Part shown: positions 13,558 to 45,200 of the stretch, in pieces
Layout of the letters: each line of letters starts with the position of its first letter
Numbering within the stretch: position 1 is the stretch's first letter
The notes under the pieces: generated by a model
What the model saw: the letters and a program-made list of their open reading frames with translations, nothing else
Databases searched by the model: none
Told to the model about the DNA's origin: nothing
Assembly: GCA_963846685.1 (NCBI GenBank)
Contig: CAWJWY010000002.1
Span: 1,924,023-1,988,022 of the forward strand
DNA length: 64,000 nt
Direction: 5' to 3'
From: an uncultured Acidobacteriota bacterium
GTDB taxonomy: Bacteria > Acidobacteriota > Vicinamibacteria > Vicinamibacterales > UBA2999
Program-made: the position numbers and the translations under genes

Positions 13558-13838
13558 CGCGGTGCACTCTATCAAGGCCAGGGCTGGCGGACGGGAGTGG
13601 AGCGGCCTGACGCGCTGCGACTTAGCCCGTGGGCGATCGCCTGGCACGCCGCGGCCTACCAGCGACGCGGTGTGCGGCGGGCACGGAGATGCCGGGTCCG
13701 CTCCGCGGCACCCGGCCTGCGAAACCTAGCCGACCGAAGAAACCGGCCGACGGAAGCCGGCCTGCGGCACCCGGCCTGCGGAACCGGCCTACGCGCGTGG
13801 CCGGGTGATAGCGCCTGGCCGAGTGATAATAGCTGCAC

Positions 13839-18163: not shown

Positions 18164-18366
18164 GCCGGTATGTTACAGGGTCGCTTCGGGGGCCGGCCGG
18201 CATCCGTCCAGCCGGCATCCGTCCAGCCGGCATCTCGTCCCTGGGTGTTCGGTTACCGGCCGGCCAGCGTTTCCCGGACATGACGCCGAAAATCATTTCG
18301 CTGGCGCCGCTCCGCGGATATCATCCGGACCGCCGCGGCGCCTCTTCTGCCCCCCAGGAGATTCCC

Positions 18367-18945: not shown

Positions 18946-18965
18946 CCCAGTGCGGGGCGCACCGG

Positions 18966-21503: not shown

Positions 21504-21508
21504 CGGAC

Positions 21509-24500
21509 TCAGCGAAGCGCATCGAGCGTGAGCCTGGCCTGCTTCAGGTCGTAGGTGTCGTGGCCCTCGGTGAACGACTCGAAGATCGGCTCTAGCAGCG
21601 CGCGCGCGCGGTCGCGGGCCACCGCCTCGTTCCGCGACGCCAACAGCGTGGCCAGCGTCGTTGCGCTGCGCAGCGCCCAGGCGCGGGCCTCCTGCTGGCA
21701 GGCCACCTCAATCGACTGCCGGAGCTCGGCTTCGGCGGCGTCTGCGTTCCCCGGCTGCTGCAGCAACAGCCAGCCTTTCATCCGCAAGACCTCCGGCAGC
21801 CACACCCGCTCGTCCCATCCCGGCCGCTCGATTTGTTGAACGCATTCTTCGAGCAGCTGGAATGCGGCATCGACCTCGCCCTTGCGCGCGAGCGCTTCGG
21901 CGAGCGCGCACTTGAAGTACAGGGACGTGGAGGTGGCCGCCGCCGGCATTCCAGGCAGTGATGCCACGGCGAAGCTGCGCAACCGCCTGGTCCAGATCGC
22001 CGAGACGTAGCCGCGCCAGCCCTTCGCCCAGGGGAACGAGCACCCTGGAGATGAGCGGGATGCTCTGCTCGCAACCGAGCAGGTGGGCCTCGCCGACTTT
22101 CTCGAGCAGTCGCTCGGGCTCGCCGCGATAGTCGAAGACGTAGGACCCCCAGGTCAGCGCCCAGCCGAGATCGAAGGGGTGGCCCAGCCGGCGCGCATGG
22201 TCATCCTTTTCGTCGCTGACCTGCTTGGCGCGCTCCGGGTAGCCGAGCATCCACAGCCACTGCGCCGAGAAGACGCCGACCGCGGTGCGGACATCACTGC
22301 CGGTCAACTCCTTCCAGTAGCCGGCGCGCTCCGGCGTGTACAAGGCGGTCGCGCTGTTACCGTGCTTGTCCGCGGCGGCGAGTCTGCCAAGGTAGAACTG
22401 CGAGGTCATGCTGCCGCGGTGACCGAGGATCTGCAGATCGACGTTGTTGCTCGTGTCGCCTTCTGCCAGCAGCCGCTCCGCCCAATGCGGCGCCTCAGCG
22501 ATTCGACCCTGCGTGACGGTGTTGACCCACATGCCCCACAGGCCGACGAGCAGGCTCTGCGGACTGTCCTGGCTGCCGGCAAGCCGCAGAATGGCCTTGG
22601 CGTTGGCGCCAACCTCGGGTTCGGCCCAGCCCTGGAAGCGCAGCCGGGCGGCGTGCAACGGCTCGCGCAAGGAGAGCTCCAGCGTGTCCCGCTCGGCGGA
22701 GGGCGGCAGCTGATCGACGACCGTCAACCCCTCCTTCAGGTAGGCAACGGCCTCCTTATTGGCCACCCTCGCCAGCGCCGCCTCGCCGGCGCGCCGCCAG
22801 AGTGGTACCGCCTCGGCGAGCCGTCCCGCCTCGGTGTAGTGGCGCGCCAGCAGCTCCGGTTCGTGGGCGACCGTTTCGGCGAATCGCTGCTCCAGCGCCT
22901 CGGCGATCCGGGCATGCAGCCGCTGCCGCTTGCTCCTGAGCAGCGAGTCGTAGGCCGCATCACGCACCAGTGCGTGCTTGAAGGTGTAGGTCGCTTCCGG
23001 CGGCGTGCCGCGGCGGAACACGAGTCCGGTTCCCACCAGTTGCTCGAGCTCCTCGTCGAACTCGGCGCCCGCGTACCGCGAGGCCGCCGCCAGCAGCTCG
23101 TAGGAGAACTCGCGGCCGATGCACGACCCGATTTGCGCCAGCTCGCGGACACCGACCCGGCGCCCGAGCCGCTCGATCAGCGACGCATTCAGCGTCTTTG
23201 GCACTTCCAGCGCCAGCGATTCGAGTGCGGTATAGCGGTCGGCCTCCTCGTGGAGAAGCGGCGACTCGAGCATCGACTTCGTCAGCTCCTCGATGAAAAG
23301 CGGCACGCCGTCGGCGTGCGCGACGATGCGGGCGAGCACCTGCTGCGGCAAGGCCTTCCCCTGCGTCACTTTGCCGACTAGTTCGTTGCCGAGATGCTGC
23401 GGCAGCCCGGTCAAGCCGATGGTGGCGACGTGACCGTAGCCATCGGCGCGCGGCGTGTACTGTGGGCGGTAGGTGAGCACCAGCATGACGCGCAGGCTGC
23501 GCAGCCGCGGCACGATCAGCTCGATCAGTTCACGGCTGGTCGGGTCGATCCAGTGCGCATCTTCGAAGACGATCAGCACCGGCTGGAGCCTGGAGAGCGC
23601 CTCGACCTGCGCGATCAGGGCATCGAGCATCTTCTCCTTCTGACGCTGCGGCGACAGTCCGAGTAGCGGGTAGCGCGTCGTCGGCAGCGAGAGCAGCGGC
23701 GCGAACAACGTCGCGGCTTCAATCCGTTGCGGTTGGCTGCCGACGAGTACGGCGTCGAGTTTGTCGAGTTTCTGCTCCGGCGTGTCGTCGCGCGTGAAGC
23801 CAGCGGCAAACTCCAGTTGCTCGACGATGGGGTGCAGCGGCGCGTTCAGCTGAAACGGCGAGCACTGGTAGCGCATGACGATGTGCGGCTCGAGGCGGAT
23901 ACGCTCGCTCAGCACCTGAGTGAGCCTGGACTTGCCGATCCCTGCCTCGCCGCTGAGCAGCACGACCTGTCCTTCGCCGCTCCGCGCCAACAGCCAGTGG
24001 CGCATCAGCAGCGCCACCTCCTCTTCGCGCCCGACCAGGTCGGTCAACGGCACGTCGCCGTGCACGGCGTCGAAGCGATCCCGGCTCCTGTTCACCGCGC
24101 GCACACGCCACGACCGCACCGGCTGGACGATGCCCTTCAAGGTGTGTTCACCTAGATCGGTCAGGTCGAAGAAGTTGCCGATCAGCAGCCTCGTACCAGG
24201 GTCGATCACCACCTCGCCGGCGCTGGCGACCCCTTCCTGAAGGCGGGCGGCAAGGTTCGGCGTCTCGCCGACTGCGAGCGAGTCACCGGCCGTGTTCTCC
24301 CGCGCCGCTTCGCCGACGACAACCGAACCTGTCGCCACGCCGACGCGAACCGCCAGCGCGCCGCCAGCGATACCTTTGACCGCCTCGACGATTTCCAGGG
24401 CCGCTCGAACGGAGCGCTCGGCGTCGTTCTCGTGCGCGTCGGGGAAGCCGAAGTAGACCATCACTCCGTCACCCAGATACTGCCTGACGTTACCGTCGTA

Positions 24501-24887
24501 GGCCTGGACGGTGGTGGTGCACGCCTGGAAGTAGGCGTCCCGCAGCTTCTTGACCTGTTCGCGGTCGAGGCGCTGGTTCAACTCGGTGTAACCCACCAGG
24601 TCGCAGAACATCACGGTGAGCTGCCGATTTTCGTCGTGAGACAGCGGCGTGCGTTCGAGCGCCTGGCCGGTGACGCGCCGCGGGGCCGGCAGGGCTACGT
24701 CGCGGCTGGCGGTCGTTGCCGCCGCCTGCAGCAGCCGCAGCGTGTCGCCCAGGTTCAGACCAAGCCCAATCAGGTCCTCGCGCGTCAGCGCCGGCAGCAC
24801 GTCGAAGTCGTCGATACCGTTCTGCACCAGGACCGAACGGCGGTGCGCGAGACCGTTCTGGGTGAGCCATTCGGAGAAGGACGCCAT
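21509..24887 (-). CDS. SAM-domain / adenylate-guanylate cyclase / AAA(STAND)-ATPase / TPR multidomain regulator; likely one frameshift near 21980
   Basis: N-terminal SAM-like segment; cyclase catalytic motifs (LTVMFCDLVGYTEL, YLGDGVMVYFGFP); P-loop VVLLSGEAGIGKSRL; C-terminal TPR region continues in the separate 21509..21982 frame. Confidence 0.7.
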
Positions 24888-24998
24888 GGGGACCGGGATG
24901 CCTCCTGAGTGGGCGCATTATCGTCCACGGCCGAAGAATTCGCATGACCCTTTCGTGATACGGTTCCCCCGCCAAACGCGGCTTCTTCATATCTGCCC

Positions 24999-27386
24999 AT
25001 GGCTGACATCCCTGGAGCGATCCGTCCGGCCGCTGCGTACCCAAGCCGGCGCACCGACGCCTTCTTCGACAGGCATCCGATCAGCGGCGCGACCTATACG
25101 ACGGCAAACCGCGCCGTCGTGCCGCTGGAACTGCAGTACGACGGCGGCGAGATGCTGCACATCTACGGCGAGTGCGCCAACCTCGCGCAGGTGGACGAGG
25201 CCGTCGCCGGAAGCGGTTACCGGCCGCTCCTCGTGGAACGCGCGGCCGGGCGCGCAGCAGCCGTCGCGCAGGTCTGGGCCTGCCGCTTCACGGACACGAC
25301 CATCGGACCCTACAGCGCTGTGTTCATCGTCCTCGTCGTCGTACCGCGCGACGTGCCAGCGGCGCGACGGTCGATCCGCACCGGCGGTCACAGTGCGGCT
25401 GCTGCGCTGGCGATGCTCGATGGCTCAGTCGACCCGGTCACCTGCGGCTACGAGAACCACGCGCGACTGTTCATGGTCCGCCTGATCGACACCACCGAGG
25501 TGGCGATCGATGTCGGGCGCGAGCGGATGGGCACCGACAAGCGGCCGGGCGGCATCGAGCTGACGAGAGATGGCCGCTATCTCCATCTCTCGGTCACGGA
25601 TCAGAAGCACCGCGGCGTGATCACCGCTCGTGTGCAGCTCGCCGATGATCCCTCGGCTTACCTGCCCGAGCTGGCGACGGCTGCAGCCGCCGCAGGGATC
25701 CCGCTCCGCCGGCTGCCCTTGGGAGCGGAGTACTGCTACCCCGCCGTCGCCCGGATTGGCCGTGGCCCAATCGCTACCTGGCAGTGGCGGAGTGACGTCG
25801 TTCCCGCATTCCAGCCAGTCGCACCTGGAGCCGTCATCATCGATGCCGCCTCGGAGGAAGGACGGATGCTGCAGGCATGGGACTTCACGCCGACGGTGCT
25901 TGGCTACATTGCCAACGTCCGCGGCGTGATCACCGGGCTCGGACGCGACGCCTCGGCGCGAGTGCATCTGCACCAGGCGGCCTCACCGCTAGACGAATCG
26001 TGCGGCTGGATGCGGCGATCGGCGGCGCTCGCGAGCGAACGGCTCACATCCGGGGCAGGAGGAGGATACGCAGTGCAGCAGCCCGCACGGGACGGATCGA
26101 CGATGTCGTGGGGCACGGTGGAGACCCCGGCGGTGCCGGCCACGGTCACCGCCGGCACACCCGTGGAGGTGGCCGTAGCAGTCTCACCTATCCGGCCAGG
26201 GCACGCGGTCACCGTTGACTACCGGGTTGACGGCGGGCCGTTGAGGCAGGTGACGGCGTCTCCGGGCACCCGGGCGCGGAACGTCAATGCCCGCCTGTTC
26301 CGGGCGAGTATCCCGGCGCACGCACAGGGACGTGTGTCGTTCCTGCCGGTGCTGCGGCTGGCGGGACAGCCGCTCACACCCCGGCTTGGCGAGTCGGGCA
26401 CCGCACTCGAATACGAGATTCCGGCCGGCGCACCGCCGTCCGGTGAGGCTGCTGCCCCAGATGCTTCTGCGACGACCGGGCAGCCGCAGTGGGCCTGGGA
26501 GGCAAGCTACCTTGGGTCGCTGTCGGCGCAACTGCGAAAGGAGAAGGTGGGTGTCACTCCAGACGGCTTGCGGATTGACTGGCATGTCATGCATGGCAGC
26601 TTCGCTGGCCCGGGCATCGAACTGAACGTGTTGCCGGGTGCGGCCGACTGGATGCGCATCCGCAAGGACGGCATCGGCATCGTCAACGTGCAGGTGTGTC
26701 TCGAGAGCCGCGACGGCGAGCGGCTCTATGGCGCTTACGGCGGCATTGCCGACCTCGGCCCCGACGGCTACGAGCGCGCCCTGCGTGATGACTTCGACGC
26801 CGTCCTGCCGGTTGTCGTCACGCCAACCTATGCAACGTCGGTCGCCCGGTTGCAATGGCTGAACCGGGCGCAGTGTCTCGGCGTGGGGCGGATGAACATG
26901 CCGGCGCTGCAGGTTGAGTTCGACGTTCACCTGGTGCGCGCAGGAGACCGGCTCGGAGTGTCAGCAGCCGGCCGGAACGGCGTGAGCGGCGCTGGCGGGC
27001 ATCCTTCGGCGGCGCCGCAGAGCCTGTACGCGCGGATGGGCGGCTACGACGTGCTTGCGGCGGTGGCTGACGATTTCATTACGTCGATTTCCTCGGATCC
27101 GCAACTCGGGCGGCTGTTCGTCGGCGGCTACCCGCCCGAACGGATGAACGCGGTCCGTCAGCACGTCGTCGAGTTCCTGTGTTCGATTACCGGCGGCTCG
27201 TGCTTCTATCTTGGGCGGGACATGAAGACGACGCACAGAGGGATGGGGATTACCGGCGCCGACTGGGAGATCGGCTTGCGCCGGGTAATCGCCGCGCTGA
27301 CCAAATCGCGCGTCGCCGCGCCCGAGCAAGCGGAGTTCGTCCGGATCATCCAGGGGCTACGAAGCACAATCGTCGAACGCCCGTAG
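24999..27386 (+). CDS. 795-aa multidomain protein: N-terminal beta-rich domain (ADC-like?), central DUF3237-like domain, C-terminal group-I truncated hemoglobin
   Basis: C-terminus YARMGGYDVLAAVADDFITSISSDPQLGRLF...THRGMGITGADWEIGL matches the bacterial globin (trHb) family; central GVTPDGLRIDWHVMHGSFAGPGIELNVLPGAADWMRIRKDGIGIVNVQVCLESRDGERLYGAYGG resembles DUF3237. Confidence 0.6.
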   Translation: MADIPGAIRPAAAYPSRRTDAFFDRHPISGATYTTANRAVVPLELQYDGGEMLHIYGECANLAQVDEAVAGSGYRPLLVERAAGRAAAVAQVWACRFTDTTIGPYSAVFIVLVVVPRDVPAARRSIRTGGHSAAAALAMLDGSVDPVTCGYENHARLFMVRLIDTTEVAIDVGRERMGTDKRPGGIELTRDGRYLHLSVTDQKHRGVITARVQLADDPSAYLPELATAAAAAGIPLRRLPLGAEYCYPAVARIGRGPIATWQWRSDVVPAFQPVAPGAVIIDAASEEGRMLQAWDFTPTVLGYIANVRGVITGLGRDASARVHLHQAASPLDESCGWMRRSAALASERLTSGAGGGYAVQQPARDGSTMSWGTVETPAVPATVTAGTPVEVAVAVSPIRPGHAVTVDYRVDGGPLRQVTASPGTRARNVNARLFRASIPAHAQGRVSFLPVLRLAGQPLTPRLGESGTALEYEIPAGAPPSGEAAAPDASATTGQPQWAWEASYLGSLSAQLRKEKVGVTPDGLRIDWHVMHGSFAGPGIELNVLPGAADWMRIRKDGIGIVNVQVCLESRDGERLYGAYGGIADLGPDGYERALRDDFDAVLPVVVTPTYATSVARLQWLNRAQCLGVGRMNMPALQVEFDVHLVRAGDRLGVSAAGRNGVSGAGGHPSAAPQSLYARMGGYDVLAAVADDFITSISSDPQLGRLFVGGYPPERMNAVRQHVVEFLCSITGGSCFYLGRDMKTTHRGMGITGADWEIGLRRVIAALTKSRVAAPEQAEFVRIIQGLRSTIVERP

Positions 27387-27389
27387 GCG

Positions 27390-28118
27390 TCAGCGCACGT
27401 CGATCGTGATCAGCGCGCGTAGGTCGTCAACGCCCTTCGCAACCACGAGCCCGGTGTAGGAGCCTGCCTTCGCCGCGCCAGGCACCGTCACGGACACGTG
27501 CACCTCCTGCCGCCCGCCAGCGCCGAGCCGAAGCTCCGGCGGTGAGACGTCGACGTTGCTCGCGACGATGCGTTCGCCATTGGCACTCAACAAGTCCGTC
27601 AGCAGCAGGGTCACGACCAGCGGCGTGCTTTCGTCGTTGGACACCGTCATCGCCACGCTGGCGCGCTGCCCGGGCTGAACCGGTCCTCGGCCGCGAAGCT
27701 CGCACACCGGCGGCTCCGTCGACGCGGGCTGCGCCCATCCTGCCGGCGCCCCACCCCGGCCGATGGCGCCCTGCAGCGTGGGCCAGGCCGCCGCGAGCTG
27801 GTCGACCAACTCGTGCACCTGCCGCAGCATCGGCGCGGTGCCATCGCGCTCCTGCACCCCCGGCCGCGCGGCGAGGTTGCGCGCCGACAGCACGCCCCTC
27901 GCCATTTCCTCGTCGAGGATTGATGCCGCCTCGGCAACGATGCGCGCTGGCGCCTGGGCCACGGCGTCCGACTCGCCGCCCACCTGTGCCGGGTTGCCGC
28001 GAAGCACCGGTGCCAAGGAGGACGGGAGCAGTTCCGATTCCGATCCCGGAAATGGGATCAGCCGGCGGGTGAGGCGGCTGGCGGCGTCGAGTGCCGGGCC
28101 GATACCGGGAATCGTCAT
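27390..28118 (-). CDS. Hypothetical protein, last gene of the encapsulin-linked operon
   Basis: ORF 27390..28355; probable start at Met 28118 (MTIPGIGPALDAAS...) 60 nt downstream of the polyprenyl synthase stop; beta-rich C-terminal half. Confidence 0.45.
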   Translation of the reverse strand: MTIPGIGPALDAASRLTRRLIPFPGSESELLPSSLAPVLRGNPAQVGGESDAVAQAPARIVAEAASILDEEMARGVLSARNLAARPGVQERDGTAPMLRQVHELVDQLAAAWPTLQGAIGRGGAPAGWAQPASTEPPVCELRGRGPVQPGQRASVAMTVSNDESTPLVVTLLLTDLLSANGERIVASNVDVSPPELRLGAGGRQEVHVSVTVPGAAKAGSYTGLVVAKGVDDLRALITIDVR

Positions 28119-28177
28119 CGGTTGAAGCACGCCGGGCGGCTGCCAACGCTTCTCGTCCACAACTACCTCCCTGAGAT

Positions 28178-29245
28178 CTAGAGATCCCGACGGACCACGT
28201 AGTCGATCACCTGTTTCACGAACGCCGTATCGCCGGACGGCGGCCGATCGCCGAAAGCGCGCGTGAATTCGAACATCGCCGCACCTGCGAGCTGTCGTGA
28301 CACCGACCGCGCGTAGTCGAAGCTGCCCGCAGCGCGCATGCGCTGCAGCATCCATTGCACATCTGCCGGTGAGCGTCCCGATCGCGGGCGGTTGAAGAAA
28401 CGGTCGATCGTCTCCCGGTCGGCCAGGCCGACTTGGCGCAGCACGTGGATCAGCATGAGCGTGCGCTTGCCCTCGAGCAGGTCGCCGCCGATCTCCTTGC
28501 CGTAACGCTTGACGTCGCCGGTCAGATTCAGCAGATCATCCTGGATCTGGAATGCGGCGCCGAGAAAAAAGCCGAAGCGGTTGAACCGGTCGAGGTCGAC
28601 GCCGTCACGCGTGGCAATCAGGGCGCCAATCCGGCATGGCTGGATGAAGCTGTACCAGCAGGTCTTCTTCAGCACCATGCGCAGGTAGTCGGACTCGGTG
28701 ACGTCGCAGCGATTCTCGCGGATCCAGCCCAGCTCCATCGCCTGGCCTTCGAGCGACTCACGCATCATGTGCTCGAACTCGTCGAACACCCGCCAGGTGA
28801 TGGTGCTGCCAAGTGGCGACAGGTTCTCGCGCAGCATGCTGACGCTCATCGCATTCAGCATGTCGCCGGCGTTCACCGCCAGCGGGACACCGTGCTCGGC
28901 GTGCATGGTCGGCAGGCCGCGGCGCAGGTCGCTCTCGTCTTCGACGTCGTCGTGCACGAGGAAAGCGTTGTGGAGCATCTCGATCGCGCTTGCCGATGGA
29001 CGAGCCAGCGCCTCGTCGCCGCCGAAGGCGCGGCACGTCGCGATGCACAGCGCCGGCCGCAGGCTCTTGCCGCTCCGCGCCAGATGTGCCGCGAGCGGCT
29101 CGTACAGGTAGCGGCGCGGCTCGCGGTCGGGAATTGCGGTGAGCAGGCGCAACACCGTCGATTCGCGGTACGCCGCCAGCCGCTCCAGGAACGGCGGGCC
29201 AGCGTCGCTGGCGGAAGGCTCGTACGGGTGCGCGGACATCGCCAC
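28178..29245 (-). CDS. Polyprenyl diphosphate synthase (trans-isoprenyl diphosphate synthase family, GGPP/FPP synthase-like)
   Basis: First and second aspartate-rich motifs (FLVHDDVEDESD; FQIQDDLLN); chain-length region LHNAFLVHDD. Confidence 0.8.
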   Translation of the reverse strand: MAMSAHPYEPSASDAGPPFLERLAAYRESTVLRLLTAIPDREPRRYLYEPLAAHLARSGKSLRPALCIATCRAFGGDEALARPSASAIEMLHNAFLVHDDVEDESDLRRGLPTMHAEHGVPLAVNAGDMLNAMSVSMLRENLSPLGSTITWRVFDEFEHMMRESLEGQAMELGWIRENRCDVTESDYLRMVLKKTCWYSFIQPCRIGALIATRDGVDLDRFNRFGFFLGAAFQIQDDLLNLTGDVKRYGKEIGGDLLEGKRTLMLIHVLRQVGLADRETIDRFFNRPRSGRSPADVQWMLQRMRAAGSFDYARSVSRQLAGAAMFEFTRAFGDRPPSGDTAFVKQVIDYVVRRDL

Positions 29246-29249
29246 CTGG

Positions 29250-31241
29250 CTACGAGGATTGCGAGATACGCACCTTCGTGCGTCGCGGCGCCGCGGCTGG
29301 GACGTTCGGGCCCTCGAACGAGGCCCGGCCCGCTGAAACGCCGACCACGCCTGCCGACCCTGGCGGCGCGTTCGGGATCCGATCCGCCATGCGCACCGCG
29401 AACATGCGCACCAGCCGTTCGATCAGGATCGTTGCATCGTGCCTGAGAGTACCCACCGGCCCAGACTGGTCGAACGCCGACGCATAGCCGCCGGCAAACG
29501 GGAAGGCGGCGCCGCCGCCCTGGAGCAGGCTATCGGGCCTGCCGGGATCGCCTTCGAGCGCGGCAATCCCGCGTTCGACCAGGTGGGTAAACGACAAGCC
29601 GGTGTTGACCAGCGTGTCGTCCCACGCCAGCCCCTGGCTGAAGCGGATGTAATCGAGCTCACGCCAGGGGATGAAGATTTCGGGCTCGTGCAGATCCCAG
29701 ATCGCGCAGGCAGGCGCCTGCGAACCTGACGCCTCAAGGATGCCATTGACGGCGTGACGAGCCGCCTCGTTTGCGGCCTCCATCGTCGCCAGGTCCGTGT
29801 TGGTGCGGACGTAGTCGGAGGCCAGGAACAGATTCGGAATCCTGGTGACTGCGTCGGGGCGCAGCTTCCAGGTGTCGACGAGATTGACCAGCAACGGCTC
29901 TTCATTCGCGGTGCGGCCGTCCTTGGTCCACTGGATGCCGGGATCGAGTGCCCAGTGGTGCAGGTCATCGTCGCTCAGGACGGTGATATCACCGTAGTTG
30001 AGGCTCAGCTTCAGCTGCGCCCAGACTTCCTGCTTGATCTCGTCGCTGGTGCATTCCTTTGCCGTCTTGCCGTTCAGTCCCTTCTTGTCCCACTCGGAAA
30101 TGTCGACCGAGATGATGCCCCTGACCTGGCCGTCGCCGTAGGTGGAGAGGTCGACCTTGTCCCAGAACTGCGCCTGGGAAATCGACGTCAGTGCCCAGGG
30201 TGAATCGACGTAGATGCTGTGGCCGCGCGTGAGCGGCACGTCCTTCGACAGGTAGATCTGGATGCCGTTCATCCACTCGGTGATGTCGTCGAGCGTGAAC
30301 AGGTGCTCGAGCGCGGGCTCGACGGCGATCATTTCAGGCGTGATCAGGTCGATGACATCTTCGACCGGCATGGCGAAGATGAAGTAGTCGCCGCTTACGC
30401 TCGTGCGCCTGCCGCCCTGATCGATCGATGCAGCGCGCACCCGGCTGCCGTCGAAGGTGACCGACTTCACTTTCGAGTCGAGGTGATAGCGCACGCCTCG
30501 TGACTTGAGGTAGTCGAGCCACGGATGGATCCACACGTCGTTGGTCGGGCCGTTGAGCACGCGGTCCGTGCTCGGGCCGGGCGTGACGATATCGAACAGC
30601 AACTGGACGAAGATGTTGCCGATCGTCTTGGTGCTGGCGGTCTCGGCCTTTGCAGCAACCAGCGAGCGGGTGATGCCGTGGCCGAGCAGTTTCTGGTAGG
30701 CGAGCGACTGTTCCTGTGCCTCGATGAACTCCCACCAGCCGATCTTTTCGTATTCGGTCATCCGCCGTTCGCGGCACGACGTCACGATCTGCCAGATCTT
30801 CGAAGCGAACAGCGCCAGCTCCGCATGCGACAGGCCCAGATCGCCGCCGAGAAAGCGGCCGAAATCGTCGAGCAGGACGCGAACATCGCCGATCGAGCGG
30901 ACGAACCGCGCAGTGAGATCGACGGGGTGGCGGCCGACACGGGCAAGCTGGCACCGCGTGGTGTCGACGAGGTTGTCGGCAACGTTGCCGTGGTTGCAGG
31001 GAATGCGGCGCATCGTGTCGACGACGTGCTTGTAGAAGCGCGGGAAGAAGCGGAAGCCGTGCTCGCCGGGGAGATCCTTGCGGCCGTCCTTGCCGGTGCC
31101 GAGGAGCGGCATGCTGCGCGCCTTGCCGCCGGGAATGGCGAGCGACTCGTAGATCTCGACCTCGAAGCCGCGCTCGATCAGCTCGTGTGCGCTGCTGAGG
31201 CCGGCGATGCCGCCGCCGAGGATGATGACTTTTGAAGACAT
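29250..31241 (-). CDS. FAD-dependent amine-oxidase/phytoene-desaturase-like oxidoreductase with extended C-terminus (663 aa)
   Basis: N-terminal Rossmann MSSKVIILGGGIAGLSSAHEL...E.Y.......GGK; C-terminal FAD-binding segment NLFLASDYVRTNTDLATMEAANEAARHAVNGI; ~150 extra C-terminal residues. Confidence 0.65.
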   Translation of the reverse strand: MSSKVIILGGGIAGLSSAHELIERGFEVEIYESLAIPGGKARSMPLLGTGKDGRKDLPGEHGFRFFPRFYKHVVDTMRRIPCNHGNVADNLVDTTRCQLARVGRHPVDLTARFVRSIGDVRVLLDDFGRFLGGDLGLSHAELALFASKIWQIVTSCRERRMTEYEKIGWWEFIEAQEQSLAYQKLLGHGITRSLVAAKAETASTKTIGNIFVQLLFDIVTPGPSTDRVLNGPTNDVWIHPWLDYLKSRGVRYHLDSKVKSVTFDGSRVRAASIDQGGRRTSVSGDYFIFAMPVEDVIDLITPEMIAVEPALEHLFTLDDITEWMNGIQIYLSKDVPLTRGHSIYVDSPWALTSISQAQFWDKVDLSTYGDGQVRGIISVDISEWDKKGLNGKTAKECTSDEIKQEVWAQLKLSLNYGDITVLSDDDLHHWALDPGIQWTKDGRTANEEPLLVNLVDTWKLRPDAVTRIPNLFLASDYVRTNTDLATMEAANEAARHAVNGILEASGSQAPACAIWDLHEPEIFIPWRELDYIRFSQGLAWDDTLVNTGLSFTHLVERGIAALEGDPGRPDSLLQGGGAAFPFAGGYASAFDQSGPVGTLRHDATILIERLVRMFAVRMADRIPNAPPGSAGVVGVSAGRASFEGPNVPAAAPRRTKVRISQSS

Positions 31242-31367
31242 CCGTAGTCCGACCGAACCATGTGATGGCGGGCCTCGCCGTCGTAGGGAGCTCTACGATG
31301 CCCGGCGCTCACACCTCTGTTCGGCAGTGGGCACGTGCCGCCACCGAAGAGGGCTTCCACCCAGCCC

Positions 31368-32633
31368 CTAACGCCGGCGCTTCACGCGGTTCTTGTTTAG
31401 CAAGAGGTCGTTGATGCGTGTCATCTGTTGACGCAGTTCGTCTTGGCCCTCCCTCAACGCGGCAATTTCGTCACCTAGACGTTCAAGTTCAGTCACGCGG
31501 GTACCCAAGTCCTGCATGCCAGCGCGCGCGGCCTTCGCCTCGCCGGTTCGTTCGCCGGCAGCCATGACTCCGAGCGCCGCTACCTGACTGGCCAGCTCGA
31601 TAGCTACCGTTTGTCTTTCGCGCGACTTCTGTCTGTGATCGTCATACCTGCCCGCGTCTTCGAGCTTCAGCGTCCTCACGGGAGCATCAGAAGGATCTCG
31701 ATGCCGCAATGTAAATCGCTCATACACGCGAAAAATGTGTCGGGCGTCGTCGGTAGTCTGAAGGAACTGAACCTTAGGGGGCGTTGCCACGACGAGGTCG
31801 ATGGTGTTGCTCGCGAGGGAGACGACTATTCCAAAGCCTTTCTGCATCACGCCAGAACGCAGCAGCGGTCCGTTCAGCAAAGGTGAGATTCTGTCGGCTG
31901 GCAGCACCAAGGAATGGCGTTCAGGCCGGTGCGCCTCAATAAACAGAGCGCTGTCGAGGACACAGGCGAATGGCCCTGGATGCGACTGCCGTTCCAGATC
32001 TGCTATAGCTCTGTTGATGGCAACTACAAGACGCTTACCCGTGGAACTTTCGTCGGGTTCGTCCCCAACGTCGTCCAGCGACGTGTCGATTATGAATGGA
32101 TCGGCGGAGGGAGCCTCGGTCAACCCAACAAGAAAATTCGGAGCCTTGACCGCAATCGTCAGCGTTCGTGGGTCGTCGTCGGGAGCACTCCGGACGCGGC
32201 GGATAACGCTCAACAGTGGCCGGAGGCCTGGCTTTACGTAGCCGTTGAAAACGATCTCGTCTTCCACCAGCGCCAGCGTCGTCGCCGCCCTGCGGAAGGC
32301 GAGCAGGGCACTCGAGAGGGATTCGTCGAAGAGCTGCTGTGCTGACAGCTCGACGTTTACCGTTAGGTTGAAAAGTTTGAGGGTCTCATCGTCAAGCACG
32401 GTCAACTTGGCTTTAGCGGCCGCGTGAACGTGGTCCGGGATGTCACTCGCATACGAATACATTTCGCCGTCGAAGGCGCTGAGCTCCTCCTTTCGCACGC
32501 TCTCGACATTGGCTCCGAGCGGCCCGTAACAAGGCAGAAACGAGCCCGCCACCGAAGCTTTGTTGAACGCTTCGGTCACGGCGGTCTGAACCTTCTCCCA
32601 CTGCGCGTCGCTCCATCCGGGTCCGTCAGCCAT
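31368..32633 (-). CDS. Family-1 encapsulin (Linocin-M18/HK97-fold) nanocompartment shell protein with ~105-aa C-terminal coiled-coil, Arg/Lys-rich extension
   Basis: GWSDAQWEKVQTAVTEAFNKASVAGSFLPCYGPLGANVESV parallels the EncA/T. maritima N-terminal helix region (W..l...V...A...LVGR..LD..GPLGA.V); LVEDEIVFNGYVKPGLRPLL vs EFEDEVIFRG; C-core RHIFRVYERFTLRHRDPSDAPVRTLKLE vs HPFRVLEALLLRIKHPDAICTLE; GGAGA SD 9 nt upstream of ATG 32633. Confidence 0.7.
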   Translation of the reverse strand: MADGPGWSDAQWEKVQTAVTEAFNKASVAGSFLPCYGPLGANVESVRKEELSAFDGEMYSYASDIPDHVHAAAKAKLTVLDDETLKLFNLTVNVELSAQQLFDESLSSALLAFRRAATTLALVEDEIVFNGYVKPGLRPLLSVIRRVRSAPDDDPRTLTIAVKAPNFLVGLTEAPSADPFIIDTSLDDVGDEPDESSTGKRLVVAINRAIADLERQSHPGPFACVLDSALFIEAHRPERHSLVLPADRISPLLNGPLLRSGVMQKGFGIVVSLASNTIDLVVATPPKVQFLQTTDDARHIFRVYERFTLRHRDPSDAPVRTLKLEDAGRYDDHRQKSRERQTVAIELASQVAALGVMAAGERTGEAKAARAGMQDLGTRVTELERLGDEIAALREGQDELRQQMTRINDLLLNKNRVKRRR

Positions 32634-32861
32634 GCCGTTCGTCTCCATTCGCCGCCTGGGGTGTGGCGCCGCGGTCTGTGCACAGTTCGGCGCGAGCGTG
32701 CGCGGATTATTAGCCGAGTTCGCGGTTGCCGGCAAATACAACCTGTTAGCTGCAGGCGCAGGGCACGCGCGGGGGCTTCTCCGGCTACGGCTTCTCCCGT
32801 CCCCGCTTGTGAAGTACCGTCACATCAGGCCGTCGATGCCGGGTCCGCTGCGCGGCACCCG

Positions 32862-33600
32862 GTCTACTCGTGGCGCTGGCGCGACATTGAACGCAACTGA
32901 ATCAGCGCCGCCGGCCGCGGCGCGACAGGCCGTTCCAGCGACGGTCCGACTTGAGGGACCGTGACACGGCGCAGCGGGTAAAACCGCCGCGCAGCGTGAG
33001 GGCAGCGCAGGTTACGGACCTGCGCCGGTCGCCGACGGCGGTGCGGAGCGGCGGTTTTTCCACGGTCACGAACGGAGGACCGGAGCGGCGCGGCACGCCG
33101 CGGCGCAGCGGCGGGGGAACCGACGCCTGCGTGCAGACATGCCGGGTCCGCTACGCGGCACCCGGCCTACGTGGCACCCGGCTACGCGGCACCCGGCCTA
33201 CGCGCTGACGTGGTTCGCTGTGAGCGCCGCGCGCAGATCATTGAACGCGCCCGGGTCAGCGCCGACCGGCCGCGGCGGGTCGGGCCGTTCCAGCGACGGT
33301 CCGACTTGAGGGACCGTGACACGGCGCAGCGGGTAAAACCGCCGCGCAGCGTGAGGGCGGCGCAGGTCACGGACCTGCGCCGGTCGCCGACGGTGGTGCG
33401 GAGCGGCGGTTTTTCCACGGTCACGAACGGAGGACCGGAGCGGAACGGCGCGGCACGCCGCGGCGCAGCGGCGGGGGGAACCGACGCCTGCGTGCAGACA
33501 TGCCGAGTCCGAGACGCAGCACCCGGCCTACGTGGCCCCCCTCTACGCGGCACCCGGCCTACGTGGCACCTGGCTGCGCGGCACCCGGCCTACTGGTGGC
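32862..33600. repeat. Tandem duplication (~355-bp unit, 2 copies, >90% identical) of a hairpin-rich non-coding element; each copy ends in 3-4 tandem 15-16-bp GCACCCGGCCTACG-type units
   Basis: gacggtccgacttgagggaccgtgacacggcgcagcgggtaaaaccgccgc... occurs at 32940 and 33295; nested perfect inverted repeats (ACGGTCC/GGACCGT; GCGCAGGT-tacgg-ACCTGCGC; GGTAAAACCGCCGC/GCGGCGGTTTTTCC); ORFs through it (32951..33208, 33171..33869) are Arg-rich repeat artefacts. Confidence 0.7.
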
Positions 33601-33858
33601 GCGTGCTGCGCGGAACCGCGGTCTACTGCTGCGGCACTGGGCGGACCCTACTGCGGCAGACGCGGCAACTTTGGTGGGACTTGATGACCGTCAAGAGCTG
33701 GCTCGAACACGCTATCCAGGACGCCGAACGCCGCGGCCTGCCTGGCCTCAAATCGCTGCTCGAGACGCTCGCCCGCTCGACCTCGGCGCTGCGCAGCGCC
33801 GACTGGAACAGCGATGCCGCGTCTGAACTCGCCGACCGCGCCCCGCGACGGCCGATCA

Positions 33859-35232
33859 ATGGACGCTAAGCTGCCGGGCATCGCCGACCTCGCCCGGGCG
33901 CTGCGCGCCGGCGAAACGACGGCACAGACGCTGCTCGAAGGGTGCCTCGAGCAGATCCGCGATCGCGATGGCGAGATCAACGCCTTCATCACCGTTCTCG
34001 CCGAACAGGCGCGCGAGCAGGCGCGGGTCGCCGACCGCGAGCTGGCCAGCGGCACCGACCGCGGCCCCCTGCACGGCATCCCGATCGCTCTCAAGGATCT
34101 GTACGACCTGCGCGGCACCGCGACGACGGCGGCCAGCAACGTGCGGCGCGAGCACGTCGCCACGAGCGATGCCACGGTGGTCGCCCGGCTGCGCGATGCC
34201 GGTGCGGTGTTCGTCGGCAAGAACAACCTGCACGAGTTCGCCCTCGGCACGACCAACGAGGACTCGGCGTTCGGACCGGTGCGCCATCCGCTCCGGCCGG
34301 AGCGCTCGCCCGGCGGTTCATCGGGAGGCTCGGCCGCGGCGGTGCTGGCCGGCATGGCCTGCGCCGCCATCGGCACCGACACCGGGGGATCGATCCGCAT
34401 CCCGGCGGCGGTGTGCGGCCTGGTTGGCCTCAAGCCGGCGAGCGGCGACCTGCCGACGACCGGGGTGGTGCCGCTCAGCGGCACCCTCGACCACCTCGGG
34501 CCGATCTGCCGCTCGGTTGCCGACGCGCGCCTGTTGTATGCGGCCATGCGCGGCGATGCTGCTGCGTCAGAGCAGCCGCCGCGATCAGCGCCGCACGGAC
34601 CGTCACCGCAGCCGCGGGGACTGCGCGGCCTGCGAATCGGCCTGTTGAAGGGCTACTTTACCGCGCTGCTCGACGCGCAGGTCGGCCACGCCTTTGGTGA
34701 GACATGCGCGCGACTGGCCGCGGCCGGTGCGGTTCTTGACGACGTGACGCTCGGCCACGCCGACGACATCGCCCCGGTCTACGTGCACATCGTCCTCGCC
34801 GAGGCGGCCGCCTACCACGCCAGGACGCTGGAACAGCGCGCTGCCGACTACACGCCGAACGTGCGCATCCGACTGGAGATGGGCCGCTACATACTCGCCG
34901 AGGATTATCTGCGGGCGCTGCACGGCCGCGAAGTCCTGCGCGGCGAAGTTGACGAGGCGCTCGCCCGCCACGATCTCCTGCTGCTGCCGTCGGTACCGGT
35001 GCCGGCAACGAGGCTGGGCGTGCCGACGGTTCGGATCGGCAGCAGCGAAGAACCAGTGCGTAACATCACGCTGCGATTGACGCAGCTGTTCAACGTCACC
35101 GGGCACGCCGCCATCACCATGCCCTGCGGCAGGACGGTAGACGGGCTGCCGGTCGGCGCGCAGTTCGCCGGTCGCAGCACCGCTGATCTACTGGAACGGG
35201 CCGCGGCACTGGAAAGCACGGTCCGCAGCTGA
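33859..35232 (+). CDS. Amidase-signature family amidase (GatA-like)
   Basis: GGSSGGSAAAVLAGMACAAIGTDTGGSIRIPAAVCGLVGLKP amidase signature; catalytic Ser-cisSer-Lys context; start at ATG 33859. Confidence 0.8.
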   Translation: MDAKLPGIADLARALRAGETTAQTLLEGCLEQIRDRDGEINAFITVLAEQAREQARVADRELASGTDRGPLHGIPIALKDLYDLRGTATTAASNVRREHVATSDATVVARLRDAGAVFVGKNNLHEFALGTTNEDSAFGPVRHPLRPERSPGGSSGGSAAAVLAGMACAAIGTDTGGSIRIPAAVCGLVGLKPASGDLPTTGVVPLSGTLDHLGPICRSVADARLLYAAMRGDAAASEQPPRSAPHGPSPQPRGLRGLRIGLLKGYFTALLDAQVGHAFGETCARLAAAGAVLDDVTLGHADDIAPVYVHIVLAEAAAYHARTLEQRAADYTPNVRIRLEMGRYILAEDYLRALHGREVLRGEVDEALARHDLLLLPSVPVPATRLGVPTVRIGSSEEPVRNITLRLTQLFNVTGHAAITMPCGRTVDGLPVGAQFAGRSTADLLERAAALESTVRS

Positions 35233-35296
35233 TACAACTGGGAACACGCGTCCGCCTGAACGTGGACACCACTGGTAACCTCGAGTCCCTCCCCGA

Positions 35297-36367
35297 ATGC
35301 TCGCTCGCTTCTTCCACGCCTGGGAACACCGCCTCGCCTCCGTCACGAAGGATCGCGTCGTCCGCCCGTTCGATTGGGGCAACGATTGGCTGTCACCCGC
35401 TGAGACGCTGATCGCCGCCAGCGGTGCCTCGGAGTCGGCGATCGAGGCCTGGGTGGACGAGGTGATGCGCGACACGGATGCGTTCTTTGGCATCCCGGCG
35501 CAGTGCGAGTACGACTTCACGCCGGCCGCGGCGGAGGTGGCGGCCGCTGGTGAAGCTGGGACGGTCTCGTACCCGAGCGCACTGGTCACGCCGCATCCCG
35601 AGAACAACACGGTGATCGCCCGCTGGTTCCCCGCCGCTGGCGAGGCGCCGATTGGCCGGACCCCGGGCCGCGGCCGCGCGGTCGTCGTGCTGCCGCAGTG
35701 GAACTCCGACGCCGAAGGGCACATCGGCTTGGCGAAAGTGCTGGCGCGGTTCGGCGTTTCGGCGCTGCGTATGAGCCTGCCGTACCACGACCGCCGCATG
35801 CCGCCGGAACTCACCCGCGCCGACTACATCGTCAGCTCCAATGTCGTCCGGACATTGCAGGCCTGCCGACAGGCGGTGCTCGACGCACGGCGCGCCGTCG
35901 CGTGGCTGCACGCCCAGGGATTCGAACGGATTGGCATCCTCGGCACCAGCCTGGGCTCCTGCCTGGCGATGCTGACGTCGGCGCACGAGCCGCTGATCCG
36001 CGCACAGGCTCTCAACCACGTGTCGCCGTACTTTGCCGACGTGGTGTGGCGCGGCTTGTCGACCCGGCACGTCCGCGCCGGCATCGATGGCCACGTCGAT
36101 CTCGAGCGGTTGCGCCAGCTGTGGCGGCCGATCAGCCCGTTCTCCTACCTGGAGCGCGTGCGCCGCACCCAGACGCTGCTGGTCTACGCCCGCTACGACC
36201 TGACCTTTCCGGTCGACCTGTCCAGACTGCTGATCGACGAATTCCGCCGGCGCGGCCTGCCGCACGAAGTTGCGGCGCTGCCCTGCGGCCACTACAGCAC
36301 CGGCATGGCACCGTTCAAGTTCTGGGATGCGTATCTGCTCACCCGGTTCTTGCGCAGAAGTCTCTAA
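35297..36367 (+). CDS. Alpha/beta-fold hydrolase
   Basis: Nucleophile elbow GTSLGS; length and secondary pattern consistent with dienelactone-hydrolase-like proteins. Confidence 0.55.
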   Translation: MLARFFHAWEHRLASVTKDRVVRPFDWGNDWLSPAETLIAASGASESAIEAWVDEVMRDTDAFFGIPAQCEYDFTPAAAEVAAAGEAGTVSYPSALVTPHPENNTVIARWFPAAGEAPIGRTPGRGRAVVVLPQWNSDAEGHIGLAKVLARFGVSALRMSLPYHDRRMPPELTRADYIVSSNVVRTLQACRQAVLDARRAVAWLHAQGFERIGILGTSLGSCLAMLTSAHEPLIRAQALNHVSPYFADVVWRGLSTRHVRAGIDGHVDLERLRQLWRPISPFSYLERVRRTQTLLVYARYDLTFPVDLSRLLIDEFRRRGLPHEVAALPCGHYSTGMAPFKFWDAYLLTRFLRRSL

Positions 36368-42264: not shown

Positions 42265-45200
42265 TCAGGCCAGATAGACGAGACGTGCCTGCACCCAGAC
42301 CCCGGGAAACACCTGTTCCGCGGCACGTTTATATAGGGCGGCCTGCTGCTCGTGCTCGGGGCGGCGCCGCCCGGTCTTGAACTCGAGCACGGTCACGCCA
42401 CCGTCGCTCGCCTGTACCAGGCAATCGATGGTGCCTCGTACGACGCCGTCTTCACTGGCCATGGTGAACGGCACCTCGTGCAGGATGGTGCCGCCGCGGT
42501 AGAGCTCGAGCACCTCGTCGCGCGTGCAGAGCGCAACGTAAGCCGTCACCACCTCCTCGATCAGCTCATCGTGATTCTCGAGATCGCCGCCCTCGTCTGG
42601 CCGCAGCAATCGGGACGCCTGGTCGCGCAACTGTGCGCAATCCAGCGATGCGCCAGCGAGGCCGACACGCTGCAGCAGCCGGTGCACCAGAATGCCGGCA
42701 AGGCGATCCGAGCTGCGCCCGCCCGGCAGCGGCGCTCGCGCCGTGCTGAGACCGGCGGCGGTGACGGCGGCGGAGCGCCGCACCGGGGATGCGTCGCGCA
42801 AGTGCGAAAAGTGGGTCGCTGACGGCATTGCCGCAGCTGGCTCATTCAGCGGCGCACCAGTCGTGGCGGTCGTGCCAGCCGTGTCGGCCGTGTCGGCCGT
42901 GTCGGACATGGACGTGCCGGTCGTGCCGGTGCGGGCCGGCGCGCAGACCCCGGCGATGTGCACCGTCCCCGAGGCTGCGCGCCACTGCACAGATTCTGAT
43001 CCCGCCGCAGCCTGGCGAAACGGCTCGAGGAAGGAGGGCGGCAACACCTCGGCGAGGCTGCCGCGGCCTGCTTGCACCGCGCCGTCCTTCAGCGCGGTGC
43101 CCAGATAGAGGCGGTCGCGCGCACGCGTCAGCGCGACGTAGAGGAGGCGCTTCGTCTCCTCGCGATCCTTTGCCGCATCGTCATCATCCGACTCGGATTG
43201 GAAATCGCCGACGGAGACCGAGGCGCCGTCACCGCCGGCTTCGTCGGCAGCGACACGGATGGCATCACGACGGTTGCCGGTGCCGCGCGCCAGGTTGACG
43301 ATGAAGACGACCGGGAACTCCAGCCCCTTCGACGCATGGATGGTCATCAGGTTGACGGCATCGAGCGCGTCGATCGTCGCGTTGGCTTCGTCGCCGACGG
43401 CGAGGCGATCGAGGTGCGCCACGACGCGCCACAGCGTGGCATAGCCGCGATTCTGGATGCGCCGCACGAGACCGCGAATCTTCTTCAGGTTCTCGCGGGC
43501 CTGGTGGCAGCGGCTGCCACGCATCTCCAGCGCGTAGGCCGATTCATTCAGGATCACGTCGAGCAGTTCGGCCGGCGGCATCCGGTCGACGAGACGGAGC
43601 CAGCGGGCGGCGCCGGCGCGGGCGCGGCCAAGCGCCGCAGCGTCCGCGGGATCGAGCGCGGCCGGCACGTGATCGGCGGTGATCGCCTCCGCCAGCCGTG
43701 GCGCCAGCCGGCGCAACCCCTCGTCCGACATGCGGATGAAGCGCGAGCGCAGCCATGCCGCCGCGCGCAGGTCCGACAGCGGGTCGGCGAGAAACCAGAG
43801 CAGCGCGACCGTGTCCTTGATCTCGTCCGCATCGAAGAAGCCGAGCCCCTTGTAGACATACGACGGCAGGCCACGCCGCTCGAGGGCATCCTCGAACTCG
43901 CGATGGCTTTCGCGTGTGCGGAAGAGGATGGCGACGTCGCCCGGGCGAACCGGGCGGCGCACGCCGGTGTTGCGATCGCGCACCGGGGCGCCGGCCGCGA
44001 CCAGCCGCTCGATCTCCGCCGCAGTGATCTCGGCGCACTCTTCGGCCGAATCGGCGACGACGAGGCCGAGCGGCGATGCAACGGGGGGAGGGAGGGCGAC
44101 CGGGCGGCCAGGTGCCGGGTCGGCATGTTCTTCGCTGTGCCGCACCCGGCCTACGTCGGCGGCGCTCGCCGGGTCGGCGTCCCCTTCGCTGCGCCGCACT
44201 CGGCCTACAGCTGCGTCCAGCGCAGCTGCGTCGGTAGGCCGGGTGCCGCCGGATGTTCGCGGCGGACCCGGCGTCTCGTCCTCGGTCGTTGCCACCAGCG
44301 CAAGGTCATCGATCGGGAAGCGATCCTGCTCGTCGTACTGGAACGCGTCGCGTCGTGATGGCGCCTTGTCGATGTCCTGGCACAGGTCGTTGATCAGCGA
44401 CAGCAGCGCCGGGGCGGAGCGGAAGCTGCGAGAAATCGACCAGCGGACGTTGCCGTCGGGGCGGAGACTCTCCAGGTGCCGTGCCGCCTCCTGCAGCACC
44501 GACGCATCCGCATCGCGAAAGCCGTAGATCGACTGCTTCCGATCGCCGACGATGAAGATCGACGGCTGGACCGGGCCGACGTGGTGCAGGCCGGCGCCCT
44601 CTCCCCACGACTCGACCAGCAGCGACACCAGTTCCCACTGCGCCCGGCTGGTGTCCTGGAACTCGTCGACCAGCACGTGGTGGTAGCGCGCCTCGAGGCG
44701 ATAGCGGCTCTGCGCGAACTCCTCCATCTGCCGCAGCAGGTCGAGCGCGCGCAGCAGCACGTCCGAAAAATCGAGCACCGCATGGGTCTCGAGTGTGCGC
44801 CGATACTCGGTCTCGGCCACCTTGTACATGCGCCACACCCCACGCGAAACGAGCACGTTGAGGTCGCGGCGGTAGCGTGCGCTGGCCGCCGCGAACGCGG
44901 CGGCATGGCCGACGACCAGGCTGCCATGCGTGCGCCAGTCGGCGAGCGACGTGAACAACTCCTTCTTGTAGCCGACCCGCTTGCGCGGCTGCCCCTCCTG
45001 GGTCATGAAGTGGTCGCGGATGCGGGCAAACGCGACCTGCACGGCCGCCGGGTCGAGCGGCGCCGAATCCTGCAGCGCCGACTCGAGCTTCCGCAACGAG
45101 CGCACCACCAACAGGAACGCCGGTTCCGGCGGGCCCGATTCGACGAACGCATCGGCACCTCCTGGCATGCCGGCGAACACGTCGAGCAGCGCGGCAGCCC

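Follow-up and report, generated by a model that had tools for sequence, protein, structure and literature searches.

Between a gene for an encapsulin-like shell protein and the next conserved gene, the genome of an uncultured Acidobacteriota bacterium (GTDB Vicinamibacterales, UBA2999; GenBank assembly GCA_963846685.1, contig CAWJWY010000002.1) carries a repeat-rich intergenic region with two kinds of element: tails made of repetitive extragenic palindromes (REPs) and long, strongly covarying hairpins that we call rods. The window, by which we mean the whole 64,000-nucleotide (nt) stretch analysed (positions 1,924,023 to 1,988,022 of the contig, forward strand, numbered here from its first letter), holds two members of a widespread rod family of at least 107 copies, whose hosts are Acidobacteria-like (Vicinamibacterales-like) organisms from soil. 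With moderate confidence we regard this family as a non-autonomous, hairpin-forming structured intergenic repeat resembling enterobacterial repetitive intergenic consensus (ERIC) elements and REP doublets forming hairpins (REPINs), because its members sit in safe spacers in random orientation, have neither a partner gene nor a promoter of their own, form sharp-edged modules and are flipped at orthologous loci.

The spacer (32634-33683; 1,050 bp, G+C 70-77%) runs from the encapsulin-like gene on the minus strand to the next conserved gene on the plus strand. An original prediction, made from the sequence of this region, had described a tandemly duplicated element of ~355 bp with more than 90% identity, and the duplication is as it said: two copies, a period of 355-361 bp and 92-94% identity. 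Repeat family D1 pairs 32911-33110 with 33266-33465 (200 nt, 94% identity, 355 apart) and D2 pairs 33113-33202 with 33474-33563 (92% identity, 361 apart); blastn between the spacer copies gives 92.3% identity across 325 nt, and the two rods, A and B, are 97% identical in their 154-nt core. The duplicated unit is therefore real, but it is not a single element: each 355-bp unit is a composite of two unrelated parts, a ~190-nt rod on the plus strand and a REP array as its tail. Since a REP tail also precedes copy A (32836-32874), the layout is tail-rod-tail-rod-tail:

32836-32874, minus strand: REP unit 0 (minus-strand GTAGACCGGGTGCCGCGCAGCGGACCCGGCAT), GTAG plus a bulged hairpin of 6+4 predicted bp (repeat family D3; DNA fold -11.2 kcal/mol, z = -3.3)
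32885-32913, plus strand: short spacer duplicated with the rod, beginning CATTGAACGC (repeat family D5)
32914-33104, plus strand: rod copy A, with outer arms 32914-32936/33082-33104 and covariance-model core 32936-33090 (inverted repeat I5; covariance model R1, 123.1 bits, E ~1e-30)
33139-33204, minus strand: REP array A, in which 16-nt half-units (minus-strand GTAGGCCGGGTGCCGC) follow a single full REP (DNA fold -13.3 kcal/mol, z = -4.4)
33260-33473, plus strand: rod copy B, with outer arms 33260-33291/33442-33473 and covariance-model core 33291-33445 (inverted repeat I1; R1, 133.2 bits)
33500-33660, minus strand: REP array B, a degenerate REP and ~5 half-units to 33600, then decayed units to ~33660 (from the repeat analyses)

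The nested inverted repeats that had been reported as perfect are all present, namely ACGGTCC-8 nt-GGACCGT, GCGCAGGT-TACGG/CACGG-ACCTGCGC and GGTAAAACCGCCGC...GCGGCGGTTTTTCC, but the last of these is imperfect, with a T·T mismatch at position 3; the stem GGTAAAACC/GGTTTTTCC has a single mismatch. The description of the region as highly structured is well founded. Copy B (33262-33475) folds at -139.7 kcal/mol, with z = -6.3 against 200 shuffles, its minimum free energy structure is the rod of the whole family, and covariation within the family is extensive. The open reading frames (ORFs) that cross the repeat are not genes, because copies A and B differ by frame-breaking indels (1, 5 and 1 nt), and a coding sequence was rejected on this ground, in agreement with the earlier view of these ORFs as artefacts; among database sequences, their sole 'homologues' are unannotated short ORFs that overlie further copies of this element. 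ARAGORN finds no tRNA or tmRNA in 31000-35000, and no Rfam 15 covariance model, those of 6S, SRP, RNase P, Acido-1, HEARO and riboswitches among them, matches 31000-35500 at E <= 1.

It was through these spurious ORFs that relatives of the rod came to light. Protein databases queried with the translation of the open plus frame across copy B returned P0121, an unannotated 202-aa 'protein' on a 1.04-Mb contig, which is the translation of a third tail-rod-tail copy and from which 18 codons matching the duplicated spacer 32885-32913 are absent. Back-translated and set against the window, it has Ala in place of Pro in one arm of the large hairpin and Ala in place of Gly in the opposite arm, which together amount to a compensated replacement of C-G by G-C in helix P4 of the rod. 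Three further short ORFs (P0123-P0125) came from a profile search over 1.84 billion representatives; in them the same P4 pair is A-T or G-C, and further pairs are also compensated. The DNA of one ORF locus (L004) was obtained. A degenerate 32-nt pattern was then built from the conserved columns, and it matched 84 metagenome contigs from JGI, ENA and GenBank, once each. Finally, covariance model R1, comprising the inner 154 positions of the rod, detects 107 copies in 79 contigs at E <= 1e-6: 105 in 78 loci and two in the window. The window has exactly these two (123 and 133 bits), both on the plus strand and without the 'b' partner described below. Their nearest outside copy, in L037, is 85% identical, and among the 79 contigs a direct tandem pair of rods occurs in the window only.

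Other searches returned nothing of the family. Viral contigs gave no match in two scans, one of them with the degenerate pattern; with one unit as query, blastn against plasmids gave only a single insignificant match, from Streptomyces; the exact arms of the P4 hairpin found just two chance matches among genome contigs, in Hymenobacter and Lachnospiraceae; and a protein search with the minus-frame ORF found no match. No Rfam 15 family matches the rods of 15 family loci, the sole match being a chance lncRNA elsewhere in the loci, and a literature search found no description of the family. The homologues elsewhere for which the original prediction allowed are nevertheless at hand, in the form of P0121 and 105 copies in 78 contigs, and this is not a repeat with no other copies or homologues. 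In a region of 70-77% G+C, where long ORFs and hairpins are common, one could take the repeat for a one-off recent duplication of meaningless spacer DNA with chance hairpins; given the fold score of copy B, 107 homologous copies with compensatory changes and a third copy on another contig, we assign this explanation a negligible probability.

The rod structure was obtained from a MAFFT alignment with RNAalifold and from per-sequence folds, which agree. Its outer stem (P1 and P2) pairs in nearly all copies, with a sequence that varies between subfamilies; as indels left the P1/P2 columns unalignable in MAFFT, this stem was scored by per-sequence folding, with a mean of 28.8 pairs against 10.7 when the 3' flank is shuffled. 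Further inwards follow P3 (consensus GCGCCGUG/CACGGCG), an asymmetric P3-P4 bubble (on the 5' side 14-17 nt that end in GUA, on the 3' side UUCC), P4 (AAACGGGCUC/GAGCCCGUUU), a P4-P5 internal loop of ~12/22 nt (..AGCGUGAC.GC on the 5' side versus GGGUCGC...UGCGGAG on the 3' side) and P5 (GCGCAGCUC-ACG-GAGCUGCGC). Each of the two arms of P2/P3 holds a small palindrome, in the arrangement X-X'...X-X' and without GTAG, the 'spacer' of this arrangement being a conserved apical domain of ~100 nt. In L047, L014 and partly in L057, an extra palindromic insert of ~40 nt (CCCCGGGGTCCCC...GGGGTGGGAATC) lies in the 3'-side internal loop between P3 and P2, and its presence in L047 and L014 implies that this site tolerates insertions.

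Covariation within the rod family is strong. In the alignment to R1, which is fitted to the structure, 97.0% of cells are in standard pairs versus 80.4% after shuffling, and compensatory changes affect both sides in 27 of the 32 pairs. Covariation scores 0.394, versus 0.118 for shuffled alignments (0 of 500 reach the observed value) and 0.02-0.05 for slid partners, and single positions occur with three Watson-Crick types (for example GC in 39 copies, CG in 35 and AU in 17). Moreover, G·U and U·G pairs number 125 and A·C and C·A pairs 18, and for copy B the plus strand exceeds the minus strand in stability by 12.8 kcal/mol; it follows that one strand folds, which in the window is the plus strand. 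The loop motifs GUAAAAC, GCGGAG and GUUUUUCC.CG lie outside the search pattern and are still nearly invariant.

Such properties are also what one would expect of a true non-coding RNA (ncRNA) gene family, protein-binding or trans-acting and 6S-, Y- or scaffold-like, of which the window would hold a duplicated gene. Its genes would often come as pairs of diverged paralogues, and a conserved partner in the cell would be bound by its conserved apical loops. The very strong covariation in three helices, the loop nucleotides conserved beyond the search pattern, the excess of G·U over A·C together with the more stable plus strand of copy B, and a conserved apex capping an outer stem that is free to vary all speak for this explanation, as do two further observations: the two paralogous forms of the rod, a and b, are each conserved across contexts, and at orthologous loci the element is conserved as much as or more than the flanking coding DNA (90.8% versus 86-89% between L024 and L086). 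However, the genomic distribution of the rods, to which we now turn, points elsewhere.

The rods are intergenic. Where both neighbours were called (48 loci), the two genes are convergent in 24, co-directional with the rod in sense in 10 and in antisense in 11, and divergent in three, and in 50 of 67 loci (75%) it is a convergent gene that lies downstream. The neighbours belong to 64-75 different Pfam families, with no recurring partner and with no constant co-oriented position upstream of a recurring gene family, which is the pattern of a riboswitch or 5' leader. Element-encoded guide or structural RNAs (retron msr-msd, IS110 bridge RNA, TnpB/IscB omega RNA) lie beside a gene for a reverse transcriptase, an IS110 recombinase or TnpB/IscB; of such partner genes, Transposase_20 occurs once (one of 62 upstream neighbours), and the others are absent from the 25 commonest neighbour families listed per side. 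When the modules described below are aligned, neither a conserved block resembling a promoter upstream nor a U-tract downstream appears. Against an ncRNA gene family count the lack of a promoter block and of a U-tract terminator, and the preference for convergent spacers with random orientation, which is the pattern of REP- and ERIC-type repeats.

This same distribution invites a different explanation, that the rod serves the host in cis, irrespective of gene function, as a bidirectional barrier or insulator, as a stabiliser of mRNA 3' ends or as a site for a nucleoid protein. The rods are long and G+C-rich, they are enriched in convergent spacers and at 3' ends and depleted in divergent (promoter) spacers, they stand on both sides of single genes in L027 and L082, and roles of this kind have been proposed for REPs at the same locations (PMC3733652). 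But a pure stem barrier needs neither conserved asymmetric loops nor a preferred strand, orientation relative to co-directional genes is random (10 versus 11), an incoming transcript would meet the antisense copy first in head-to-head pairs, and the rods of the window themselves lie in a divergent spacer, all of which makes a host-serving cis element quite improbable.

In 27 of the 78 loci there is a second copy, a diverged paralogue that we call 'b' (35-58 bits), always head-to-head with the first, 'a', and in 24 loci the two lie 25-120 nt apart, measured between model ends. The resulting b(-)/a(+) modules of 400-420 nt have sharp conserved edges and occur in at least 6 unrelated contexts (among them L014, L016, L018, L026, L029 at 2942-3341, L035, L047, L053, L057, L062, L065, L066 and L080). 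Elsewhere, two strong copies stand head-to-head ~900 nt apart in L027, and in both L027 (656-1863) and L082 (749-1981) inverted head-to-head rods, ~900-950 nt apart, bracket a single gene. The idea that such pairs bracket a transposase was rejected, the enclosed genes being a metallophosphoesterase and a glyoxalase-like protein. Two other candidates were rejected as well: an integron attC site, since there is one copy per contig, the length of the element is excessive and convergent genes lie downstream; and the template/variable repeat pair of a diversity-generating retroelement, since the copies do not differ specifically at adenines and no gene for a reverse transcriptase lies close by.

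Five groups of orthologous loci, with flanks that are 85-97% identical, carry the element or module in opposite orientations with respect to those flanks (L015 versus L029/L049; L045 versus L076; L018 versus L080; L024 versus L086; L014 versus L057), and these flips of orientation could have come about by inversion or by re-insertion. The context shared by L014, L057 and L069 also has a short inverted repeat, CGCGATAAG / CTTATCGCG, placed in its two flanks. Flipped orientation at orthologous loci, the absence of synteny, head-to-head gaps of 25-120 nt that leave scant room for two promoters, and the lack of any Rfam match, 6S included, count against an ncRNA gene family, which we retain as a possible, if unlikely, explanation.

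[quoted passage not shown] (ii) Paralogue b is nearly invariant across contexts, which could reflect purifying selection rather than recent spread. (iii) Beside 15 b-a modules no consistent terminal inverted repeat (TIR) or target-site duplication was found, the best inverted repeats in the flanks being inconsistent and at chance level. (iv) No transposase was found with the rods, although no screen for a cognate transposase such as RAYT (Y1/HUH) was made, and the genes enclosed by rods in L027 and L082 are ordinary ones. (v) Few further copies turned up: there is no rod in the other 63 kb of the window nor in 81 kb of related loci, and, besides the partner copies, only ~4 extra rods were found in ~440 kb.

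ERIC elements, also called intergenic repeat units, are among the known systems closest to the rods; they are long imperfect palindromes of ~127 nt that fold into a rod around a conserved central inverted repeat. These elements occupy intergenic, probably transcribed spacers in either orientation, at moderate copy number, and are conserved across genera. The rod family matches all of these ERIC traits, and yet the two differ: no relationship in sequence is known between them, the rod exceeds ERIC in length (~190 versus ~127 nt) and comes from a different phylum, it has two large conserved asymmetric internal loops, it often occurs as head-to-head a/b paralogues in modules of ~400 nt, and no target duplication of the TA type was seen. 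With REPINs (PMC3116915), which RAYT transposases mobilise, the rods share a symmetric hairpin, an intergenic location, a stem kept by compensation and both orientations, but they have no GTAG, are about twice as long and possess a conserved asymmetric apex in place of two inverted REP units.

MITEs of the Correia/NEMIS kind are, like the rods, small, non-coding and multi-copy, can form a long RNA hairpin and have varied contexts and orientations. Conserved TIRs and target-site duplications are what defines MITEs, and here the likeness ends. The rods are indeed small and non-coding, with several copies in unrelated contexts, but their TIR sequence is not conserved among copies; conservation is lowest in the termini, formed by the outer stem, and a look beside 15 modules revealed no duplication. 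To 6S RNA there is a likeness of shape only (~190 nt, closed by a long stem and tipped by an apical hairpin, with large internal loops), whereas the rods have no Rfam 6S match, are multi-copy, non-syntenic and variable in orientation, and have strongly asymmetric loops of ~15-17/4 and ~12/22 nt. The original prediction had offered a structured ncRNA, a MITE-like mobile repeat or a regulatory array of the encapsulin operon, and it is the first two of these that remain viable, each in modified form.

The tails are a different matter. On the criteria of sequence and hairpin, they are REP palindromes of the GTAG-tagged type that are dispersed over three loci of the window. On the minus strand, a tail reads GTAG and then GCCGGGT-g-CCGC-gca-GCGG-ACCCGGC, a hairpin of 7+4 bp with a one-base bulge. 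The GTAG starts are at 32867-32836 and 33170-33139 (minus strand); as DNA, the tail hairpins fold at -11.2 to -13.3 kcal/mol with z = -3.0 to -4.4, the one at 32836-32867 having 6+4 bp. The tandem half-units GTAGGCCGGGTGCCGC come after the tail hairpin, and Tandem Repeats Finder resolves the stretch 33151-33204 into 3.4 units of 16 nt and the stretch 33514-33593 into ~5 units of 15/16 nt, which bears out the earlier statement that tandem units of 15-16 bp end each copy. The 14-nt REP core matches 11 times in the 64-kb window, versus 0.96 expected, and the matches lie in three loci, the spacer and two others:

13686-13796, minus strand: further REPs of this family, in a cluster that lacks a rod (motif matches)
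44133-44249, both strands: the REP half-unit, present three times and in both orientations within the ORF 42265-45996 (motif matches)

The full REP at 13.7 kb has GCAG in place of GTAG, and its cluster occupies the spacer between a 185-aa ORF on the minus strand and a NamZ-like gene. The half-units at 44133-44249 lie inside an uninterrupted ORF (42265-45996, minus strand) for a UvrD-helicase/PD-(D/E)XK nuclease, outside the Pfam domain matches. A GTAG tag beside a palindrome is the criterion of the GTAG-tagged REP superfamily, and the survey of 2013 that established it also reports REPs inside replication and repair genes and spurious short ORFs called over REPs, and does not list GTAG REPs for Acidobacteria (PMC3733652). 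The tails share with the REPs and bacterial interspersed mosaic elements of that survey (PMC3733652) the GTAG beside a short imperfect palindrome, the occurrence in several copies and in clusters, a tandem reiteration that includes flanking DNA, and some copies within repair genes. REP-like hairpins followed by CTAC are also seen just 3' of the rod in L009, L015, L040, L042, L043, L050, L063 and L077; one of them, GGTCCGGCTAAAGCCGGACACTAC, is present twice in L015, an arrangement that echoes the adjacency of rod and REP in the window.

The genes on both sides of the spacer, and the remaining features of its borders, are these:

31368-32633, minus strand: encapsulin-like shell gene, with its ATG at 32633-32631 (Pfam Linocin_M18, 6.4e-23)
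32706-32735, minus strand: the sole sigma-70-like promoter match of the spacer, TTGCCG-18-AATAAT, facing the encapsulin-like gene (consensus match only)
33684-33869, plus strand: 61-aa ORF whose stop overlaps the amidase start, the right-hand border of the spacer (conserved in relatives)
33859-35232, plus strand: amidase-signature enzyme, with a database copy that starts at 33814 (Pfam Amidase, 4.4e-111; P0001, 100% identical, 472 aa)

Thus, the spacer does not reach the amidase gene at 33858, as had been claimed, but ends at 33683, before the conserved 61-aa ORF. This small ORF is conserved in L003 (7838-8011) and in P0122 (73% identity), and an ORF of 57-72 aa is found at the same place in all relatives of the locus, overlapping the start of the amidase gene (ATGGACGCTAA in the window). 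It has no Pfam or NCBIfam match; in its position it is reminiscent of AtzG, the small partner of AtzE-type amidases. The relatives, with amidases 67-71% identical to that of the window, keep the order small ORF, amidase, hydrolase and M16 peptidases, and in them the stretch upstream of the small ORF is only 45-480 nt long, with neither a rod nor an encapsulin gene. Compared with L003, where the corresponding interval is 484 bp, the window has an extra block of 15.5 kb (18158-33683), with the repeats at its right edge. The genes of this block encode a Ser/Thr kinase-TPR protein, a SAM/adenylate-cyclase/AAA protein, a DUF3237-globin fusion, a polyprenyl synthase, an HpnE-like amine oxidase and the encapsulin-like protein. 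In L003 itself, an ORF of ~120 aa (7440-7825) lies upstream of the small ORF, and by eye we take it to resemble the 'four-helix-bundle / 23S rRNA intervening-sequence' proteins. Proteins of this kind often occupy spacers.

The encapsulin-like gene scores 90 bits on the NCBIfam model encap_f1 (cut-off 100), and its product of 421 aa matches Linocin_M18 in the C-terminal half only. With a G+C content of 0.55-0.60, ~10 points under its surroundings, the gene stands first in an operon (28178-32633) that also encodes a polyprenyl synthase and an HpnE-like flavin oxidase, the synthase reaching 185 bits on the model 'family 2 encapsulin cargo polyprenyl transferase' (cut-off 450).

Does the repeat control either operon? 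Both rods are on the plus strand, 210-770 nt upstream of the ATG of the small ORF, and no promoter-like site is predicted on the plus strand between them and this ATG, so a locus-specific leader or array acting on the encapsulin operon or on the small-ORF/amidase operon could be imagined. Control of the encapsulin operon, which the original prediction had suggested, is not supported by the locus itself: the folded strand is antisense to the encapsulin gene and the sole sigma-70-like site for this gene sits between the gene and the repeats, outside the latter. Nor does the family support it: neighbour families are unrelated, Linocin_M18 being outside the 25 most frequent ones listed on either side and the amidase appearing once on each side; 75% of downstream genes are convergent; and the relatives of the amidase locus, with spacers of 45-480 nt, lack the repeats and an encapsulin gene altogether. 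We consider a locus-specific regulator of either operon very improbable, and in effect essentially excluded.

Returning to the reading as an ERIC/REPIN-like repeat, the life of a rod would probably run as follows. It would persist or spread in 'safe' spacers, for the most part where genes have their 3' ends; having no promoter or terminator of its own, it would probably be co-transcribed by read-through and fold as RNA; and its conserved apical loops would probably be the recognition site of a putative protein. In the window, the simplest account is that unequal recombination or slippage between the flanking direct REP arrays duplicated 'rod + REP array' as one unit of 355 bp.

A bolder proposal, which we consider doubtful, is that the rod represents a new class of functional structured RNA in Vicinamibacteria-like Acidobacteria, with a conserved apical domain to which a dedicated protein would bind and with head-to-head paralogue pairs whose orientation is actively switched; if this were true, the rod would be an invertible or re-targetable RNA module and not passive selfish DNA. 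For annotation, the rods and their REP tails explain the spurious Arg-rich ORFs of such spacers and warn against assigning the repeats to the encapsulin operon. Acidobacteria of the Vicinamibacteria type are abundant in soil and their non-coding repertoire is almost undescribed. In them, a family with covariation as strong as that of curated RNA families, and with a covariance model ready for tests, may be a new ERIC/REPIN-like replicator or a new ncRNA.

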